A program made the position numbers and the translations under genes. Positions 992-17,583 of a stretch of 29,289 bases of DNA are shown here, one piece after another. The DNA comes from Gammaproteobacteria bacterium (GTDB taxonomy: Bacteria > Pseudomonadota > Gammaproteobacteria > Chromatiales > Chromatiaceae), in assembly GCA_041307205.1 (NCBI GenBank), contig JBFZDU010000076.1, positions 1-29,289 of the forward strand, read 5' to 3'. Below the pieces are notes generated by a model that searched no databases, was not told the origin of the DNA, and saw nothing but the letters and a program-made list of their open reading frames with translations. The number at the start of each line of letters is the position of its first letter. Positions within the stretch are counted from its first letter, which is position 1.

Positions 992-2113
992 TTACAAGCC
1001 TTCCAGCAGATGCCGATAGGCCGCCACGCAACGCCTGGCATGATCGTCCCAGGTGCCGACGTGCTCGCGCAGCCACTGCCTGGCCCGCGGGCCGATCGCG
1101 TCAGCCGCTTCGGTGGCCTGCAGGGCCTGGGCCAACTGGTCGCGGCTGTCCACCAGCCAGCCGGTTTCGCCTTGGCAAAGCAGGTCACCGTGAGCCGGAA
1201 TCGCGCTGGCAACGACCGGCAGGCCGGATGCCATGGCCTCGATCATCACCTGTGGTCGTCCCTCGTCATGCCGGCTCAGTGTCAGCAGGCCGGTCGCGCG
1301 TGGAAACCAGCGGGCTCGCAGTTGCTCAGGATTGGTCGCGCCGCCATAGTCAATCCACTCGGGCAATGCGACCTGTTCTTGCATCGGTCCGAGCAGTCGT
1401 AGTTTCCGCCCTGTTCCGAACAGGCCGTCACCCCATTCCAGCAGGTCACCGAGCTTGTTGCGGGTGATCCGGGTCACCACCAGCCACTCAGGTGGGTTCG
1501 CTGGACTGCGTGGGACCGCAAACCAGTCGGGCAGGACGCCGAACGGGTTGGGCCGCACCGTGGCGACATCGCCGAAGTGCTCGGTCAGCTTTGCCGCCAT
1601 CCATTGTGCATTGGGTGCGAGCATGGTCGGACGGCGGCGGAACGCGCGACGCAGCAAGGGCTTCATGCCCGGCAGGTCCAGCAGCCCGAAGTCGCTGCCG
1701 AGCACGCCGACGTAGGCCGGACGCCGGTCTGCCGGCAGGCCGAACACCAATTGCAGCCAGTTGACGTGATACATATCGGGTGGGTTGGCCCGACAGGAGC
1801 GCCGCAGGCGCGCAAGCAGGCCTCGGGAATATCTGAGCCCAGCGAGCGGTCGTCTTCTGAGCAGGTGCGCGATGCCGCCGGCCTGGGCCATCTGCTCCAG
1901 CCAGGCGGCGTCCCTGGTCGAATCGGCGCTGATCACCCGGCCGGGCAGCTCGCCGGGCGGACCCCACAGCCGCAGTCGCGTCTGTCCGGTCCGATCCAAG
2001 GCGGCCGCCAGGTCGTAAATGAAACGCCCCTTCCAATCGGCGGCGTCGCGCGGATAGGAGGTCGTGGCCATGAATACGGAGAGGGGCGACTGGCCCGTCG
2101 CGGAATCGTTCAC
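992..2113 (-). CDS. Glycosyltransferase family 4 (GT-B fold), 373 aa
   Basis: N-terminal TTSYPR motif, C-terminal E-x7-E signature [19 protein letters not shown] followed by ETGWLV; GTG start at 2113 (alternative ATG at 2071). Confidence 0.88.
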
Positions 2114-2149
2114 TGGCCTGACGCCTCGGCTCCCTGTCGCATGGTCGGG

Positions 2150-2158
2150 ATACTAGCA
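2150..2158 (-). promoter_or_regulatory. Putative extended -10 element (TGC-TAGTAT) for the GT4/epimerase operon
   Basis: Minus strand reads TGCTAGTAT (TGn-TAnnnT) 36 nt upstream of the GTG start, in the divergent intergenic region. Confidence 0.5.
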
Positions 2159-2214
2159 GATGGCGGGCGGGGCTCATGCGCGTGCTGGGCGTGGGCGCGG
2201 CCGTACTGCGCGGG

Positions 2215-2220
2215 TAGAAT
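2215..2220 (+). promoter_or_regulatory. Putative sigma70 -10 element TAGAAT for aroC
   Basis: TAGAAT ends 7 nt before the aroC ATG; same hexamer recurs upstream of DUF2288 and cvpA genes. Confidence 0.55.
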
Positions 2221-2227
2221 ACCCGCC

Positions 2228-3331
2228 ATGTCAGGAAACACCCTCGGAAAACTCTTCACCGTCACCTCCTTCGGCGAGAGCCATGGGCCGGCCATTGGTT
2301 GCATTATCGACGGCTGCCCGCCCGGGCTTGAACTGGCGGAGGCGGACATCCAGCCGGATCTGGAGCGCCGCCGCCCCGGCAAGACCCGCCACACCACCCA
2401 GCGGCGCGAGCCGGACGAGGTGCAGATCCTCTCGGGAGTGTTCGAGGGCCGGACCACGGGCACGCCGATCGGGCTATTGATTCACAACACCGATCAGCGG
2501 TCCAAGGACTATTCCGAGATTGCCCAGAAGTTCCGTCCGGGCCACGCCGACTACACCTACACCCAGAAGTACGGCATCCGCGACTATCGCGGCGGCGGGC
2601 GGTCGTCGGCGCGCGAGACCGCGATGCGGGTCGCCGCCGGGGCGGTGGCCAAGAAGTACCTCAAGGTGCGCTATGGGGTCGTGGTGCGCGCTTATCTGTC
2701 GGCGCTGGGTCCGAACCGGCCGCGCAGTTTCAGCTGGGACCCGGTCGAGGACAATCCCTTCTTCTGGCCCGATGCGGCCCAGGTCGCCGACCTCGAGGCC
2801 TACATGGACGCGCTGCGCAAGGCGGGCGACTCGATCGGCGCCGAGGTGACGGTGGTTGCGCGTGGGGTGCCGCCCGGCTGGGGCGAGCCGATCTTCGACC
2901 GCCTCGACGCGGACGTCGCGCACGCCCTGATGAGCATCAATGCCGCCAAGGGCGTGGAGATCGGTGCCGGCTTCGAGTCGGTGCGGCAGAAGGGCACCGA
3001 GCACCGCGACCAGATGACCCCTGAAGGCTTCCTGTCCAACAACGCCGGCGGCATCCTGGGCGGCATCTCCTCGGGGCAGGATGTGGTGGCGCGGGTCGCC
3101 TTCAAGCCCACCTCCAGCATTCGCCTGGGCGGGCAGACGGTGGATGCCGCCGGCCACGCCGTCGAGGTGATCACCACCGGCCGTCACGATCCCTGCGTGG
3201 GCATCCGGGCGGTGCCCATCTGCGAGGCCATGTTGGCGATCGTGCTGCTGGACCACGCTCTGCGCCAGCGCGGGCAGAATGCCGACGTGACCCCTGAGAC
3301 CCCGGTCATCCCGCCGCAGGCCGGCTGTTGA
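2228..3331 (+). CDS. aroC: Chorismate synthase, 367 aa
   Basis: [20 protein letters not shown] start, [35 protein letters not shown] signatures. ORF-track start at 1577 is a spurious extension. Confidence 0.98.
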
Positions 3332-3387
3332 TCGCCCGCGTGACGACGACCGGATCCCGGTCCTGAGCCGCGGCCCTTTGCTACGTC

Positions 3388-4527
3388 ATGCCCTACTGGC
3401 GCCTGTCGGGTTACTACTTCTTTTACTTCGCGGCGCTCGGGGCCCTGGTGCCCTTTTGGGGCTTGTACCTGCAGTCGCTGGGCTTCGGGGCGCTGCAGAT
3501 CGGTCAGTTGATGGCCATCCTCATGGCCACCAAGGTGGTGGCGCCGCCGCTGTGGGGTTGGCTGGGCGATCACCTGGGGCACCGCATGCGCATCGTGCGC
3601 TTCGCCTCGGCGGTCTCGGCGCTGGTGTTCCTCGGCATGTTCTGGGTCGAGGGGTTTTGGACCATTGCCCTGATCATGGTCCTGTTCAGTTTCTTCTGGA
3701 ATGCCTCGCTGCCCCAGTTCGAGGTGGTGACCTTCACCTACCTCGGCGAGCGGGTGGCCCGCTACGCCCGCATCCGGGTCTGGGGGTCGGTCGGGTTCAT
3801 CATTACGGTGATGCTGCTCGGGGTGCTGGTCGACGCCCAGGGCCCGCGGGTGGTGCTGTCGGTGGTGCTGGTGCTGTACGTCGGGATCTGGCTGTCGACC
3901 CTGGCCGTGCGCGACCCGGCGCTGGCGGTGCACGCCGGGGCACAGCCCTCGATACTCGCGGTGCTGCGGCGCCCGGCCATCCTGGCCTTTTTCGCGGCGG
4001 TGTTCTTCATGCAGATGAGCCACGGCGCCTACTACGCCTTTTACACCATCTATCTGCAGGACTTCGGTTATTCCAAGACCCTGATTGGCCTGCTGTGGGC
4101 GCTGGGGGTGCTGGCCGAGGTGGTCCTGTTCCTGGTCATGCACCGCTTGCTGGCCCGTTGGGGCGGGCGACGGGTGCTGATCGCCAGCCTGTCGCTGGCG
4201 GCCTTGCGCTGGCTGGTGATTGCCTTGTACCCGCAGTCGCTGCCGTTGATGCTGGCCGCCCAACTGCTGCATGCGGCCACCTTCGGCACCTTTCATGCCT
4301 CGGCCATCCACCTGGTGCACCATTATTTTCGCGGCCGGCACCAGGGACGGGGGCAGGCCCTGTACAGTAGCCTGAGTTTCGGGGCCGGCGGGGCGGTGGG
4401 CAGTCTCGCCAGCGGCCTGACCTGGGAGACTCTGGGCGCCACCGTGACCTACCTGATCTGCAGTGCGATTGCGGTCATCGGCGCCGCGATCGCCTGGCGT
4501 TTTATCGACCGCGCCCATGACTATTGA
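3388..4527 (+). CDS. Major facilitator superfamily permease (HcaT/MFS_1_like type), 379 aa
   Basis: About 12 hydrophobic segments; YFFYFAALG...PFWGLYL N-terminus, YARIRVWGSVGF, QLLHAATFG and GQALYSSLSFGAGG motifs typical of this subfamily. Substrate unknown. Confidence 0.85.
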   Translation: MPYWRLSGYYFFYFAALGALVPFWGLYLQSLGFGALQIGQLMAILMATKVVAPPLWGWLGDHLGHRMRIVRFASAVSALVFLGMFWVEGFWTIALIMVLFSFFWNASLPQFEVVTFTYLGERVARYARIRVWGSVGFIITVMLLGVLVDAQGPRVVLSVVLVLYVGIWLSTLAVRDPALAVHAGAQPSILAVLRRPAILAFFAAVFFMQMSHGAYYAFYTIYLQDFGYSKTLIGLLWALGVLAEVVLFLVMHRLLARWGGRRVLIASLSLAALRWLVIALYPQSLPLMLAAQLLHAATFGTFHASAIHLVHHYFRGRHQGRGQALYSSLSFGAGGAVGSLASGLTWETLGATVTYLICSAIAVIGAAIAWRFIDRAHDY

Positions 4528-11962: not shown

Positions 11963-12850
11963 TTATTCACGGCAATTCTCGTCCCCGTGCGCCTGGCACA
12001 GCGCCATGAAGCGGCGTGCCGCGTTGGACAGGGTGCGGTCGCGATTGCGCACCAGTCCCAGGCGGCGCGACAGGCGCACGCCCTTGATACGTACCGGCAC
12101 TATCCCTTCGTCCAGCAGGGTGGCCGGCAACAGGCTCCAGCCGAGCCCGGTCGCGACCAGCATCTTCAGGGTTTCGAGGTAATTGGTGGACATGGCGACC
12201 TGTAGCTGCAGCCCGGCCGCGGCCACCGCACGCTCCAGGATGCCGCGGGTGTAGGTGCCGGCGCTGGGCAGCACCGCCGGCAGGGCGCAGATCCGCTGCA
12301 ACGGGGTTTGGCCGGTCTGGGCCAGCGGGTGCTCTGGCCCGACCACGAAATGCAGCGGGTCGTTCCAGAGGGTCGCCAGTTCCAGGTTTGCCGGTGCCTC
12401 GGTGGGCAGGGTCACCACGGCCAGTTCCAAGTCGCCCGAGCCGACGGCGGCGCAGGCCGTTTCCGAATCCAGGAATCGCAGGTCGAGCTTCACGTCGGGG
12501 TGCTCGCGGTGAAAAGCGCGCAATACCGGCGGCAGGCGGTGCAGCCCGATATGGTGGCTGGTCCCCAGCGCTAGCGGGCCGCTGACCTGGCCGGCCAGGT
12601 TCGACACCTGACGCTTGAGTTCCGCGGCATCGGCAAGTAGCCGTTCGGCGGCCGGCAACAGGATGCGCCCGGCCTCGGTGAGCGCAATGCGCCGACCGAT
12701 GCGGTCGAACAGCCGGCGGTCCAATTCCTTCTCCAGGCCGGCGATGCGCTTGCTGACCGCCGGCTGGGTGAGGAACAGGCGGGTCGCCGCACCCGAAAAG
12801 GATCCCTGGCGGGCGACTTCGGCGAAGGCTTGCAAGGCATCGAGTTCCAT
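11963..12850 (-). CDS. LysR-type transcriptional regulator, 295 aa, divergent from leuC
   Basis: HTH signature [42 protein letters not shown]..., effector domain with GLGWSLLP. Confidence 0.95.
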
Positions 12851-12888: not shown

Positions 12889-12907
12889 ATGAATTTGTTT
12901 TATTCAT
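12889..12907. promoter_or_regulatory. Second LysR-type dyad ATGAAT-N7-ATTCAT overlapping the leuC -35
   Basis: Perfect 6-bp inverted repeat, T(12890)-N11-A(12902). Confidence 0.6.
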
Positions 12908-12947: not shown

Positions 12948-14351
12948 ATGCAAGCACGAACCCTGTACGACAAGCTCTGGGACGACCACGTGGTGCGCGT
13001 CGATGCCGACGGCACCGCCCTGTTGTATATCGATCGCCAGCTGGTGCACGAGGTCACCTCGCCGCAGGCCTTCGAGGGACTGCGCCTGGCGGGCCGCAAG
13101 CCGTGGCGGACTTCGGCCAACCTGGCCACCGCCGACCACAACGTGCCGACCACCGCGCGGGCCCAGGGCATCACCGACCCGGTGTCGCGGCTGCAGGTCG
13201 AGACCCTGGATCAGAACTGCGCCGAGTTCGGCATTGTCGAGTTCGGGATGAACGACCCACGCCAGGGCATAGTGCACGTGGTCGGTCCGGAGCAGGGCGC
13301 GACCCTGCCAGGCATGACCGTGGTGTGCGGCGACTCGCACACCTCGACCCACGGCGCGCTGGGCGCGCTGGCCTTCGGCATCGGCACCTCGGAGGTGGAG
13401 CACGTGCTGGCCACCCAATGCCTGATCCAGAAGAAGTCCAAGACCATGCGCGTGGTGGTGGACGGCACCGCCGGGCCGGGTGTGACCGCCAAGGACATAG
13501 TGCTCGCCATCATCGGCCGGATCGGCACCGCCGGCGGCAACGGCTATGCGATCGAGTTCAGCGGCCAGGCCATCCGCGACCTCTCGGTGGAAGGGCGGAT
13601 GACCGTGTGCAACATGGCGATCGAGGCCGGGGCACGCGCCGGTTTCGTCGCGGTGGACGATCAGACCATCGATTACGTCAAGGGCCGGCCCTATGCGCCG
13701 GGCCCGCAGCACTGGGAGCAGGCGGTCGCCTACTGGCGCACGCTGCACAGCGACGCGGGTGCCGAGTTCGACCGGGTGGTGGTGCTGGATGCCGCCGCCA
13801 TCGAGCCGCAGGTGACCTGGGGCACCTCCCCCGAGATGGTGGTGGCGGTCGGCGCCAGGGTGCCGGACCCGGCCGCCGAGGCGGACCCGGTCCGGGCCGA
13901 GGGCATGCGCCGCGCCCTGGACTACATGGGCCTGGCCGCCGGGACGCCGATCACGGAGATCGCGGTGGACAAGGTGTTCATCGGCTCCTGTACCAACTCG
14001 CGCATCGAGGACCTGCGCGCCGCCGCCGCGGTGGCCAAGGGGCGGCGGGTGGCGGGCAACGTGAGACTGGCCCTGGTGGTGCCAGGTTCCGGGCTGGTAA
14101 AGGCCCAGGCCGAACGCGAAGGCTTGGACCGCATTTTCATCGCCGCCGGTTTCGAATGGCGTGAGCCGGGCTGTTCCATGTGCCTGGCCATGAATGCCGA
14201 CCGGCTGGAGCCGGGTGAGCGCTGCGCCTCGACGTCCAACCGCAACTTCGAGGGGCGGCAGGGTCAGGGCGGGCGCACCCACCTGGTGAGCCCCGCCATG
14301 GCGGCGGCGGCGGCCGTCGCCGGTCACTTCGTCGACGTGCGCGGGTTGTGA
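12948..14351 (+). CDS. leuC: 3-isopropylmalate dehydratase large subunit, 467 aa
   Basis: [11 protein letters not shown] start with SD GAGGA; [20 protein letters not shown], Fe-S ligands FIGSCTNSR and [23 protein letters not shown]. Confidence 0.98.
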
Positions 14352-14371
14352 CGTTTAGGGGAGCTGGCAAC

Positions 14372-14512
14372 ATGAAACGACTGCTTGCGTTCGGGCTGGC
14401 CCTGGGCATCGCACTGCCTGCCCTGGGTGCGCTGACCGGCTGCGAGACCGTCAAGGGCTTGGGTCGAGATATCGAAAACGCCGGCGAAGCGATTCAGCGA
14501 TCGACGAGGTAA
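14372..14512 (+). CDS. Entericidin A/B family small lipoprotein, 46 aa (not in ORF track)
   Basis: ATG 14372 with SD AGGGGAG 8 nt upstream; translation MKRLLAFGLALGIALPALGALTGCETVKGLGRDIENAGEAIQRSTR*; basic N-region, hydrophobic core, lipobox LTGC, entericidin-like C-x-T-x-x-G-x-G-x-D-I-x-x-x-G-x-A-I. Confidence 0.9.
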   Translation: MKRLLAFGLALGIALPALGALTGCETVKGLGRDIENAGEAIQRSTR

Positions 14513-14515
14513 GGC

Positions 14516-15154
14516 ATGGAACCGTTCAAGATCTTCACCGGCGTGGTGTGTCCGTTGGACCGCTCCAACGTGGACACCGATGCCATCATCCCCAAGCAGT
14601 TCCTGAAGTCGATCCAGCGCACCGGCTTCGGGCCAAACCTGTTCGACGCCTGGCGCTACCTCGATCAGGGCGAGCCGGGCCGGGACAACAGCGGGCGCCC
14701 GCTGAACCCGGATTTCGTCCTGAACGATCCGCGCTATGCCGGGGCGAGCATCCTGCTGGCGCGCGAGAACTTCGGCTGCGGCTCGTCCCGCGAGCACGCG
14801 CCCTGGGCGCTGATCGACTATGGCTTCAAGGTGGTGATCGCGCCGAGCTTTGCCGACATCTTTTTCAATAACAGCTTCAAGAACGGCCTGCTGCCGATCG
14901 TCCTCGACGCGGCGGTGGTGGATGGATTGTTCGCGCGGGCCGACGGGCCGCAGGCGTTGCGGATCGAGGTCGATTTGGCCGCCCAGCAGTTGCGTCCGGC
15001 CGGCGGGACGCCGATCCCGTTCGTCGTCGATCCCTTCCGCAAGCACTGCCTGCTCGAAGGCCTGGACGATATCGGTCTGACGCTGCAGCACGTCGATGAG
15101 ATCCGTGCCTACGAGGCGCAGCGCCGGCAGCGGGCACCCTGGCTGATGTCATGA
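14516..15154 (+). CDS. leuD: 3-isopropylmalate dehydratase small subunit, 212 aa
   Basis: [54 protein letters not shown]. Confidence 0.98.
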
Positions 15155-15331: not shown

Positions 15332-16408
15332 ATGAGCAAACGCATACTGGTGTTGCCGGGTGATGGCATAGGATCCGAGATCGTGGCCGAGGCCCTGAAG
15401 GTGCTGGACGCCTTGCAGGGCACGCACGGCCTGGACCTGGAACTCGACGAGGGCTTGATCGGGGGCGCCGCCTACGACGCGGTCGGCCAGCCGCTGCCCG
15501 AGGCGACCCTGGAGATGGCGCGGGCGGCCGATGCCGTGCTGCTCGGCGCGGTGGGCGGCCCCAAGTGGGAGCCGCTCGATATCTCTGTGCGCCCCGAGAA
15601 AGGCCTGCTCGGCATCCGCAAGGCACTGGGACTGTTCGCCAACCTGCGCCCGGCCATTCTCTACCCGCAACTCGCCGATGCCTCGACGCTCAAGCCCGAG
15701 GTGGTCGCGGGGCTGGACCTGATGATCGTGCGCGAGCTCACCGGCGGCATCTATTTCGGTCAGCCGCGCGGCGTGCGCACCCTGGAGAACGGCGAGCGCG
15801 AAGGCTTCAACACCCTCGTGTACCGCGAATCGGAGATCGAACGCATCGTGCGGGTCGCTTGCGACATCGCCATGCGGCGCGGCCGCAAGCTGTGCTCGGT
15901 GGACAAGGCCAATGTGCTGGAATGCACTGAGCTGTGGCGCGAGGTGACGACCCGCGTGGTCCGCAACGAGTATCCGGATGTTCAGCTCAGTCATATGTAC
16001 GTCGACAATGCCGCGATGCAGCTGGTCAAGTGGCCCAAGCAGTTCGACGTGATGGTCACCACCAACATGTTCGGCGACATCCTGTCCGACTGCGCGGCGA
16101 TGACCACGGGCTCGATCGGCATGCTGCCCTCGGCGTCGCTGAACGCGACGGGGCAGGGCATGTACGAACCGATCCACGGTTCGGCGCCGGATATCGCCGG
16201 TCAGGGCATCGCCAACCCTCTGGCGACCATCCTGTCCGTGGCCATGATGCTGCGCTACAGCCTGGACGAGCCGGCCCTGGCCGGGCGTGTCGAGGCGGCG
16301 GTGAGCCGGGTCCTGGACGACGGCCTGCGCACCCCGGACATCCTGTCGGCGGGGATGACGCGGGTGAACACCGAGCAGATGGGCGACGCGGTAGTCGCGG
16401 CGCTGTAA
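15332..16408 (+). CDS. leuB: 3-isopropylmalate dehydrogenase, 358 aa
   Basis: [62 protein letters not shown]. Confidence 0.98.
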
Positions 16409-16467: not shown

Positions 16468-17583
16468 ATGAAAAGAGTCGGATTTGTCGGTTGGCGCGGT
16501 ATGGTCGGCTCGGTCCTGATGGACCGGATGCGCGAGGAGCAGGATTTTGCGCTCATCGACGAGCCGGTGTTCTTCACCACCTCCCAGGTCGGCGCAGCGG
16601 GGCCGGAGGTCGGCAAAGCCATTCCGCCGTTGCAAGATGCCCGCGATCTCGCCGCGCTGGCGCAGCTGGATGCCATCGTCACCTGCCAGGGCGGCGAGTA
16701 CACCGGCGAGGTGTTCGGGCAGCTGCGCGCGGCCGGCTGGCGGGGTTACTGGATCGATGCCGCATCGACGCTGCGCATGCAGCCGGACGCGACCATCATC
16801 CTTGATCCGGTGAACCTGCCCGTGATCGAGCAGGCACTGGCCGACGGCAAGAAGGACTTCATCGGCGGCAACTGCACCGTCAGCCTGATGCTGATGTCGC
16901 TGGGCGGGCTGTTCAATGCCGGCCTGATCGACTGGATGAGCGCCATGACCTACCAGGCCGCCTCGGGCGCCGGCGCCAAGAACATGCGCGAGTTGCTTAG
17001 CCAGATGGGTTACCTGGAAGGGGTCGTGCACCAGCAGTTGGCCGATCCGGCCTCGGCCATCCTGGACATCGACCGGCGGGTTACCGAGGCGATGCGCGCC
17101 GACGATTTTCCGCATGCCAACTTCGGGGTGCCGCTCGCGGGCAGTCTGATTCCCTGGATCGACCGCCAGCTGGACAACGGCCAAAGCCGCGAAGAATGGA
17201 AGGGCCAAGCCGAAACCAACAAGATCCTCGGCCGTTCAGACCGACCGATTCCGATCGACGGTATCTGCGTGCGGGTTGGCGCCATGCGGTGCCACAGCCA
17301 GGCCCTCACAATCAAATTAAAGAAAGACGTACCCCTGGACGAAATAGAATCCATGCTGGCCTTAGCCAACGATTGGGTGAAGGTAATCCCGAACGATCGG
17401 GAGCTGACTGTGCGCGAACTCACCCCGACGAAGGTCACGGGCACTCTGGCGGTGCCAGTGGGTCGGCTGCGTAAGATGAACCTGGGACCCGAATTCCTGA
17501 CGGCCTTTACCGTGGGCGATCAGCTGCTCTGGGGGGCAGCGGAACCGCTGCGGCGGATGTTGCGAATTCTGTTGGCGGATTGA
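16468..17583 (+). CDS. asd: Aspartate-semialdehyde dehydrogenase (gammaproteobacterial type), 371 aa
   Basis: [21 protein letters not shown] (catalytic Cys), [35 protein letters not shown]. Confidence 0.98.

Follow-up and report, generated by a model that had tools for sequence, protein, structure and literature searches.

An entericidin-family lipoprotein gene between leuC and leuD in a gammaproteobacterial leucine operon

Why should a gene for a tiny secreted lipoprotein lie between the genes for the two subunits of an obligate heterodimeric enzyme? The question is raised by the leucine locus of contig JBFZDU010000076.1 (GenBank assembly GCA_041307205.1; 29,289 nt, the whole of which was analysed and is called the window here) from an uncultured soil gammaproteobacterium, in which a 46-codon open reading frame (ORF) separates leuC from leuD. 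The ORF encodes a peptide of the entericidin family, which occurs across diverse Proteobacteria and whose function is largely obscure beyond one study in Escherichia coli from 1998 and a few phenotypic reports. The analysis presented here indicates that the ORF is very probably a genuine, translated entericidin-family gene (ecn), a cistron of a leuC-ecn-leuD-leuB(-asd) unit that is coupled to leuD, and that its product is most likely a non-lytic envelope lipoprotein. The identity of the gene and its membership of the operon are well supported, and from them and from the literature on the family we infer a physiological role.

The gene and its product

The entericidin ORF runs from ATG 14372 to a TAA stop codon at 14510-14512, downstream of the leuC stop codon TGA (14349-14351), and its product is MKRLLAFGLALGIALPALGALTGCETVKGLGRDIENAGEAIQRSTR (46 aa). 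The longest ORF that can be called mechanically for this gene begins at GTG 14348. ATG 14372 is the better start, because it has a Shine-Dalgarno (SD) sequence and opens the MK(R/K) n-region common to the homologues. Behind the n-region, MKR in the window, and a hydrophobic core stands the lipobox L-T-G-C24, with the codon of Cys24 at 14441-14443. An initial annotation, made from the sequence without database searches, had proposed this ORF with its SD sequence and lipobox and a 23-residue amphipathic mature peptide, all of which is borne out by direct reading of the sequence, as is the identity it gave to the flanking isopropylmalate dehydratase subunit genes by their NCBIfam matches (Table 1). 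The true start codon of leuC is ATG 12948, a corrected start preceded by GAGGA. The same annotation called the gene hidden. This is correct in that the ORF fell under the annotation's own length cut-off, but the exact protein is already present in a public protein collection (P0001), with its PF08085 assignment precomputed.

Membership of the entericidin family, likewise proposed at that stage, was checked with the Pfam Entericidin profile (PF08085), which matches residues 26-44 with 33.1 bits (E = 5.2e-8) against a gathering score of 23.3 bits. The NCBIfam equivalog models give scores far under their cut-offs, 26.9 bits for EcnA (cut-off 86) and 23.9 bits for EcnB (cut-off 94), and the identity with the products of the annotated E. 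coli K-12 genes in full-length alignment is 45% for EcnA and 33% for EcnB. By these scores the window peptide classifies as a PF08085 member that is the orthologue of neither E. coli protein. Residues C24, T26, G29, G31, D33 and G38 are invariant in all 13 aligned sequences, which comprise E. coli EcnA and EcnB, leu-type peptides and other members of the family. The Cys of the window peptide is aligned with that of EcnA and EcnB, which is consistent with a lipoprotein signal of the PF08085 type, and the core C-N/E-T-x-x-G-x-G-x-D ... G is found together with the very small mature peptide, 23 residues, that marks the family. On the profile and alignment evidence, the window gene is best described as a further member of the known entericidin family, for which the NCBI Prokaryotic Genome Annotation Pipeline (PGAP) uses the name 'entericidin A/B family lipoprotein'.

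The mature peptide is strongly amphipathic when read as a helix. Its helical hydrophobic moment is 0.69, a value that none of 2000 shuffled sequences reached (0.23 +/- 0.11), and that of EcnA is 0.62; its net charge is zero. AlphaFold2, run on the single sequence, predicts one helix at residues 3-22 and another at residues 24-45, the latter with a pLDDT (predicted local distance difference test) of about 84-90. The C-terminal tail, AIQRSTR, follows the basic pattern IQ[KR]S[TS][KR] of the leu-type peptides.

A word-seeded protein search with the 46-residue query, which is too short for this type of search, returned six relatives only; P0002 among them lies in a leu context and two others lie elsewhere. 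In the surroundings of P0004 (L003:3248-6616) the entericidin-family gene stands among genes for small stress proteins (CsbD, Pmp3, DUF2383, PRC-barrel) and adjoins genes for an extracytoplasmic function (ECF) sigma factor and a response regulator, a neighbourhood of the general-stress type and unlike the leu context.

Conservation of the gene in related genomes

To place the gene among its relatives, 80 named genomes were sampled by way of LeuD proteins with 66-82% identity, and one metagenome contig was added; the set gave 79 loci in which leuC immediately precedes leuD. The gap between the two genes is bimodal in these relatives, either 2-60 nt or about 100-320 nt. A lipoprotein ORF with the motif G-C-(N/E)-T-x-x-G-x-G-x-D-x-x-x-x-G takes up the longer gap in 36 of the 79. 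Carriers include Burkholderia, Cupriavidus pauculus, Duganella, Massilia, Aquabacterium, Zoogloea, Thauera aromatica, Pseudogulbenkiania, Methylophilaceae, Methylotenera, Methylobacillus, Sulfuricella, Sulfurimicrobium, Gallionellaceae, Sideroxydans and several gammaproteobacterial metagenome-assembled genomes (MAGs). The sampled loci of Pseudomonas, Ectopseudomonas, Halopseudomonas, Pseudoxanthomonas, Sedimenticola, Chromatiaceae and Acidiferrobacterales are without the gene. The order leuC-entericidin-leuD, which the initial annotation had suggested for Burkholderiales, is found in Burkholderia, Cupriavidus, Duganella and Massilia of this sample, and in Burkholderia cenocepacia J2315 it is annotated as BCAM0983, BCAM0983A and BCAM0984 (PMC3417382). 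The arrangement is thus already in public annotation and widespread in Betaproteobacteria, but it is unstudied: a literature search on a link between leu genes and entericidins returned only the B. cenocepacia expression tables and no paper that discusses or tests the arrangement.

The gap peptides that were tested from relatives exceed the Pfam gathering score, and the lipobox with its Cys is kept in 36 of 36 homologues from genomes. Within the first 20 codons of the mature part, pairs of sequences differ on average by 0.35, 0.18 and 0.57 at codon positions 1, 2 and 3. The ratio of nonsynonymous to synonymous differences (pN/pS) is 0.42 in the ORF's own frame; a shift of frame raises it to 0.86 and 1.85 and brings stop codons into 8 and 14 of the 36 sequences. 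This pattern points to purifying selection at the level of the protein. A chance ORF could be suspected in such DNA, as high-GC sequence is full of spurious ORFs and many overlapping ORFs are present in the window, but a Pfam match above the gathering score and a constraint specific to the frame, seen in over 85 independent loci, refute this explanation, which can practically be dismissed. With this match, and with its frame conserved across dozens of genomes, the ORF is a real coding gene.

On a neighbour-joining tree of LeuC and LeuD, the gene is found in most beta-type lineages, with scattered losses, and sporadically among gamma-type ones. The window clusters there with L005, in which the gene is present, and L007, from which it is absent.

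The leuC-leuD gap also houses sequences of other kinds. In Sideroxydans (L031:2699-3001) and Gallionella (L040:2714-3004), secreted proteins of about 95-100 aa take the place of the 40-aa lipoprotein. They have a signal of the signal peptidase I type (AFA/EE, the slash marking the cut) and repeated KKGGEA and GIEKGAE motifs, score only 11-14 bits against a profile of leu-type entericidins, and fall under the Pfam cut-offs, with a weak 'Senescence' match; they may be a repeat-expanded entericidin derivative that lost the lipobox. The gap of Pseudogulbenkiania ferrooxidans 2002 (L035:2680-2967) encodes a 95-aa lipoprotein with three copies of a GGEAVGHA segment followed by a Pro-rich tail, and it matches Pfam Entericidin with 38 bits. 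A 222-aa glutathione S-transferase family gene lies within the 770-nt gap of a Magnetococcales MAG (L029:2302-2970), so the leuC-leuD junction admits other inserts too. L038, from a MAG labelled Xanthobacter sp., is identical in peptide and gap geometry to a Zoogloea MAG (L037) and nearly indistinguishable from it in the LeuC-LeuD tree, which suggests a mis-binned contig.

Two candidates were rejected. In the close relatives L007, L008, L014 and L018, the gap measures about 100 nt and has no ORF; it is not a decayed ecn gene, as it shows no similarity to ecn DNA. The gaps of L008 (2897-3000) and L014 (2892-3000), about 105 nt each, include long imperfect palindromes such as GCGCAAAGGGACGCAAAGA...TCTTTGCGTCCTTTGCG and resemble elements of the repetitive extragenic palindromic (REP) kind. 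The annotated megaplasmid matches of Cupriavidus and Ralstonia are stand-alone paralogues outside the leu context and do not count as leu-linked copies.

The leuD junction, transcription and a proposed mechanism

The leuD start codon (ATG 14516) lies 3 nt past the entericidin TAA and 6 nt past the GAGG at 14506-14509. The initial annotation had noted that the last codons of the ORF supply the SD sequence of leuD, and this holds, the tight stop-start junction being conserved across loci. Junctions were measured in 36 genome loci with ecn (the window included and the duplicate L038 left out), 49 metagenome loci and 43 loci without ecn. In the genome loci with ecn, the median distance from the leuC stop codon to the ecn ATG is 17.5 nt and an SD-like motif precedes the ORF in 35 of 36 cases. 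From the ecn stop codon to the leuD ATG the median is 3.5 nt; the distance is at most 10 nt in 25 of these 36 loci and the two genes overlap in seven. For the metagenome loci this median is 0 nt, with ATGA, TAATG, TAAATG and 1-nt spacers dominating, and where ecn is lacking leuD starts a median of 12 nt after the leuC stop codon. The junction of the window, with its 3-nt spacer and an SD sequence inside the ORF, is typical of ecn loci. The tight spacing places the short ORF where terminating ribosomes can re-initiate at leuD.

Such geometry could also mean that the ORF is a translated spacer that sets the LeuC:LeuD ratio, the peptide itself being irrelevant. The tight, conserved stop-start junction and the leuD SD sequence inside the ORF are what this explanation would have. 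Selection at the amino acid level, seen in the six invariant residues, the conserved lipobox and the coding-type codon-position pattern, largely refutes it. The peptide is also conserved at junctions without leuD and in five genome loci where it ends 50-102 nt from leuD, hence it is more than a mere spacer. We regard this explanation as hardly credible.

No Rfam, promoter-like or terminator-like element was found between leuC and leuD of the window, and no sigma-70-like promoter between leuC and ecn. For a close relative of the Burkholderia locus L061 (about 97% identical), RNA-seq contigs of 5.8, 5.6 and 4.9 kb from three independent studies run unbroken across leuC-ecn-leuD, and a 1.1-kb contig from a fourth library extends from the 3' end of leuC through ecn into leuD. 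In B. cenocepacia, BCAM0983, BCAM0983A and BCAM0984 were induced together, 2.9-, 2.0- and 2.1-fold, and leuB was also up (PMC3417382). Co-transcription of leuC, ecn and leuD is therefore supported in Burkholderia and would extend to the window by analogy.

These data allow a mechanism to be proposed. The ORF would be translated from its own SD sequence, and the precursor would be exported, lipid-modified on Cys24 and cut by signal peptidase II. What remains would be an amphipathic helix of 23 residues and no net charge, anchored at the surface of a membrane. Glu at +2 would make this the outer membrane according to the E. coli sorting rule, under which it is Asp at +2 that causes retention; the rule is not universal. 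With only 3 nt between the ecn stop codon and the leuD ATG, and with the leuD SD sequence within the last ecn codons, ribosomes finishing the peptide could pass straight on to leuD. Where the insert is lacking, leuC itself is the upstream partner in coupling, and the short ORF would have taken its place. From the coupling and the position in the operon it follows that the amount of peptide should track the expression of the leucine operon. The product would act as a non-lytic envelope lipoprotein, in membrane homeostasis or in protection against stress, when growth is limited by amino acids and makes heavy demands on biosynthesis. A non-lytic role is the most likely one, rather than that of a bacteriolytic toxin, because no antidote gene is adjacent and the gene has a permanent seat in an essential biosynthetic operon.

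Several observations weigh against this mechanism. The mRNA at the ecn-leuD and leuC-ecn junctions is no more structured than shuffled sequences (z = -0.09 and +0.28), so coupling enforced by structure was rejected. leuD owns an SD sequence and nothing forces its translation to depend on ecn, and the five loci with a distant leuD indicate that coupling is not universal. The translational coupling of ecn and leuD is accordingly a matter of geometry, and for the window it can only be called probable from the layout of the junction. The gene is evolutionarily dispensable, with at least 14 gains or losses on the LeuC-LeuD tree, and L005 has as its nearest neighbour the gene-free L007. The window organism is represented by DNA metagenome runs only; no RNA run matches the window, RNA runs of the same study share at most 1% of the sampled words, and the lipidation, localisation and expression of the peptide are predictions. 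The RNA contigs show continuity in a relative, which is not translation, and DNA contamination can affect such contigs.

Upstream of leuC, the 97-nt region between the divergent LysR-type regulator gene and leuC is AT-rich within an otherwise GC-rich window. It contains the perfect palindrome ATGAAT-N7-ATTCAT, which recurs identically upstream of leuC in L007 (1387-1405) and is a candidate operator for the regulator. Among the 43 loci that lack ecn, 23 have a LysR homologue upstream of leuC, as do the window, L005 and L036, but beta-type ecn loci have none there. A linkage between LysR and ecn was rejected, as the presence of the divergent regulator does not go with that of ecn from locus to locus; the distribution of the regulator points to a lineage trait of the gamma-type leu operon with no specific tie to the entericidin gene. 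The remaining genes of the window are ordinary chromosomal housekeeping genes: aroC, a major facilitator superfamily transporter gene, an LpxD-like gene, genes for an AcrB-type pump, DUF2288 and NUDIX proteins and FimV, and truA, trpB and folC.

Table 1. Features of the leucine locus in the window, with strand and supporting evidence
Feature	Position	Strand	Evidence or remark
LysR-type regulator gene	11963..12850	-	Pfam HTH_1 and LysR_substrate; divergent from leuC
Perfect palindrome ATGAAT-N7-ATTCAT	12889..12907		AT-rich LysR-leuC intergenic region; candidate regulator binding site
leuC, 3-isopropylmalate dehydratase large subunit	12948..14351	+	Pfam Aconitase, 597 bits; NCBIfam TIGR00170, 791 bits
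SD sequence AGGGGAG of the entericidin gene	14357..14363	+	8 nt before ATG
Entericidin-family lipoprotein gene, 46 codons and TAA	14372..14512	+	PF08085, 33.1 bits
Type II (lipoprotein) signal peptide, residues 1-23, lipobox L-T-G before Cys24	14372..14440	+	sequence
Mature 23-residue peptide CETVKGLGRDIENAGEAIQRSTR; predicted lipid-anchored amphipathic helix	14441..14509	+	hydrophobic moment; AlphaFold2
GAGG, leuD SD sequence within the last sense codons of the entericidin ORF	14506..14509	+	sequence
leuD, 3-isopropylmalate dehydratase small subunit	14516..15154	+	NCBIfam TIGR00171, 272 bits
leuB, 3-isopropylmalate dehydrogenase	15332..16408	+	Pfam Iso_dh, 466 bits
asd, aspartate-semialdehyde dehydrogenase; last gene of the conserved leu/asd cluster	16468..17583	+	Pfam Semialdhyde_dh and Semialdhyde_dhC

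The leu/asd cluster at large and known entericidins

Metagenome contigs were scanned by peptide alignment and the pattern GxG[KRQ]D[ILV]E[KN][AG]G, neighbouring genes being ignored, which gave 80 loci. The gene lies between leuC and leuD in 51 of them, at other junctions of the leu/asd cluster in 7 and elsewhere in 18, with 4 cut by contig ends; 58 of the 76 loci with readable context are thus linked to the cluster. The other placements are leuC-leuD-leuB-ecn-asd (L147), leuD-leuB-DUF520(YajQ)-ecn-asd (L115, L119), DUF520(YajQ)-ecn-asd (L090, L097), ecn-leuB-asd (L131) and, in L104, a ParA-like gene, ecn, a LeuA/CimA-family synthase gene and then leuC. Tandem, ecnAB-like pairs of ecn occupy the leuC-leuD gap of L121 (2290-2614), L162 (2360-2632) and L165 (1560-1833). 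As far as the literature search showed, these other placements and tandem copies are unreported. Of the 94 leu-cluster copies, 81 have a net-basic C-terminal tail, compared with 7 of the 18 copies found elsewhere (Fisher p = 6e-5), and the +2 residue of leu-cluster copies is N (89) or E (5), never D.

These placements suggest that co-expression with the leu/asd cluster has been maintained beyond one historical insertion. As a tentative proposal, the leu-cluster entericidins may form a distinct subfamily, with a 23-residue mature peptide, a basic IQ[KR]S[TS][KR] tail and N or E at +2, in which co-expression with the cluster is itself selected, on the grounds that the gene would have been relocated to at least five cluster junctions and duplicated in place, all without leaving the cluster. 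The multi-junction pattern has its limit in that several loci with other placements may be related by descent and that a local rearrangement bias is also possible. If the proposal is true, a tiny envelope lipopeptide would have an unrecognised link to branched-chain amino acid or aspartate-semialdehyde metabolism, one possibility being an envelope adjustment set off by amino acid limitation.

A direct functional tie to the leucine/aspartate-semialdehyde cluster, for which selection keeps the co-expression, could take the form of an envelope response to branched-chain amino acid limitation, a modulation of the transport of intermediates or a protection linked to the oxygen-sensitive Fe-S dehydratase. 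The same peptide subtype at no fewer than five junctions of the leuA/cimA-leuC-leuD-leuB-asd cluster, its share of the readable metagenome loci, the excess of basic tails in leu-cluster copies and the retention of the gene in most beta-type lineages speak for such a tie, as does the H2O2 hypersensitivity of a Xanthomonas ecnA mutant, which also forms less biofilm (bioRxiv 10.1101/505081). However, losses are frequent and come with no visible compensating change in the loci examined, movement within the cluster could reflect the rearrangement bias instead of selection, L090, L097, L115 and L119 probably derive from one lineage, and the literature search found no experiment that connects any entericidin with leucine metabolism. 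A direct tie is unlikely on this evidence.

The tandem pairs recall the founding members of the family, and with them the possibility that the peptide is an EcnB-like bacteriolytic toxin, which either rises in level and triggers programmed lysis when leucine starvation derepresses the leu operon or acts as a selfish addiction element. According to E. coli annotation and to an account that cites the original work, ecnAB encodes an antidote (EcnA) and a bacteriolytic lipoprotein (EcnB) (PMC7296081 citing Bishop 1998), and the B. cenocepacia orthologue is annotated as an 'entericidin B-like bacteriolytic toxin' (PMC3417382). Against a toxin, neither the window nor most leu loci contain an antidote gene, a potent toxin is hardly to be expected where expression always accompanies that of an essential operon, and inheritance appears to be chromosomal and operon-bound, not mobile. 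By the bit scores and identities given above, the peptide is also marginally nearer to EcnA than to EcnB. The sole lone homologue that has been tested, the EcnB-like Atu8019 of Agrobacterium tumefaciens, is surface-exposed, associated with outer membrane vesicles and membrane-binding, and lyses neither cells nor liposomes; entericidin genes that stand alone are common in the family (PMC7296081). The initial annotation had stressed a single gene without partner. This is true within the window, but stand-alone paralogues occur elsewhere in betaproteobacterial genomes, so a partner located elsewhere is possible. Overall, a lytic function is quite improbable, and a non-lytic envelope lipoprotein is favoured. 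In Moraxella, ecnAB mutants show weaker adherence (PMC3735583).

Another neighbourhood recurs outside the leu context. In L110, L135 and L138 (about 1947-3787 each), an entericidin with an acidic tail is encoded between the gene for the elongation factor P (EF-P) hydroxylase EpmC and an NAD kinase gene, and E. coli ecnAB lies directly after efp (L085); this EF-P-related neighbourhood in two lineages may be a coincidence.

One entericidin subtype is built into the leucine operon across much of Betaproteobacteria and part of Gammaproteobacteria, where it usually ends at the leuD start codon. What a lone entericidin does can therefore be tested in hosts that are open to experiment, among them Burkholderia, Cupriavidus, Ralstonia and Thauera. 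A second question is whether a short ORF for a secreted peptide serves to couple the translation of two subunits that make up an obligate heterodimer. There is also a lesson for annotation: the leuC-leuD 'spacer' of roughly 150 nt in these lineages is a gene, and deletions or insertions in it may be polar on leuD.

The window gene can finally be compared with the known entericidin systems. It shares with E. coli ecnA and ecnB the Pfam family, a type II signal peptide, a Cys-anchored mature peptide (23-27 residues in the E. coli proteins, with EcnA at 23 residues like the window peptide), strong amphipathicity and the motif C-(N/E)-T-x-x-G-x-G-x-D-I-x-x-x-G. In contrast to the E. coli tandem pair, it is single, as a six-frame scan of the window with the hidden Markov model (HMM) gave one copy. 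E. coli ecnAB is a stand-alone stationary-phase and osmotic locus next to efp, with a promoter of its own under RpoS/OmpR control, whereas the window gene is promoterless and lies inside a biosynthetic operon; Glu at +2 and the basic C-terminal tail are further differences of the window peptide from EcnA and EcnB. Another close system is that of the Burkholderia BCAM0983A type, with the identical gene order leuC-ecn-leuD-leuB and, in L061, a lipoprotein that passes the Pfam threshold. It differs in lineage, the window belonging to a non-beta, gammaproteobacterial group in which the gene is sporadic, in the divergent LysR gene upstream, which beta-type loci are without, in the +2 residue (E in the window, N in the Burkholderia type) and in the spacer to leuD, 3 nt in the window as against 66 nt in L061. 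Atu8019 has a non-leu context and a 32-aa mature peptide, and the likeness to the window gene that can be shown is one of family; being a single entericidin-family lipoprotein that lacks EcnA as a partner, it offers the best experimental guide to the action of a lone member.

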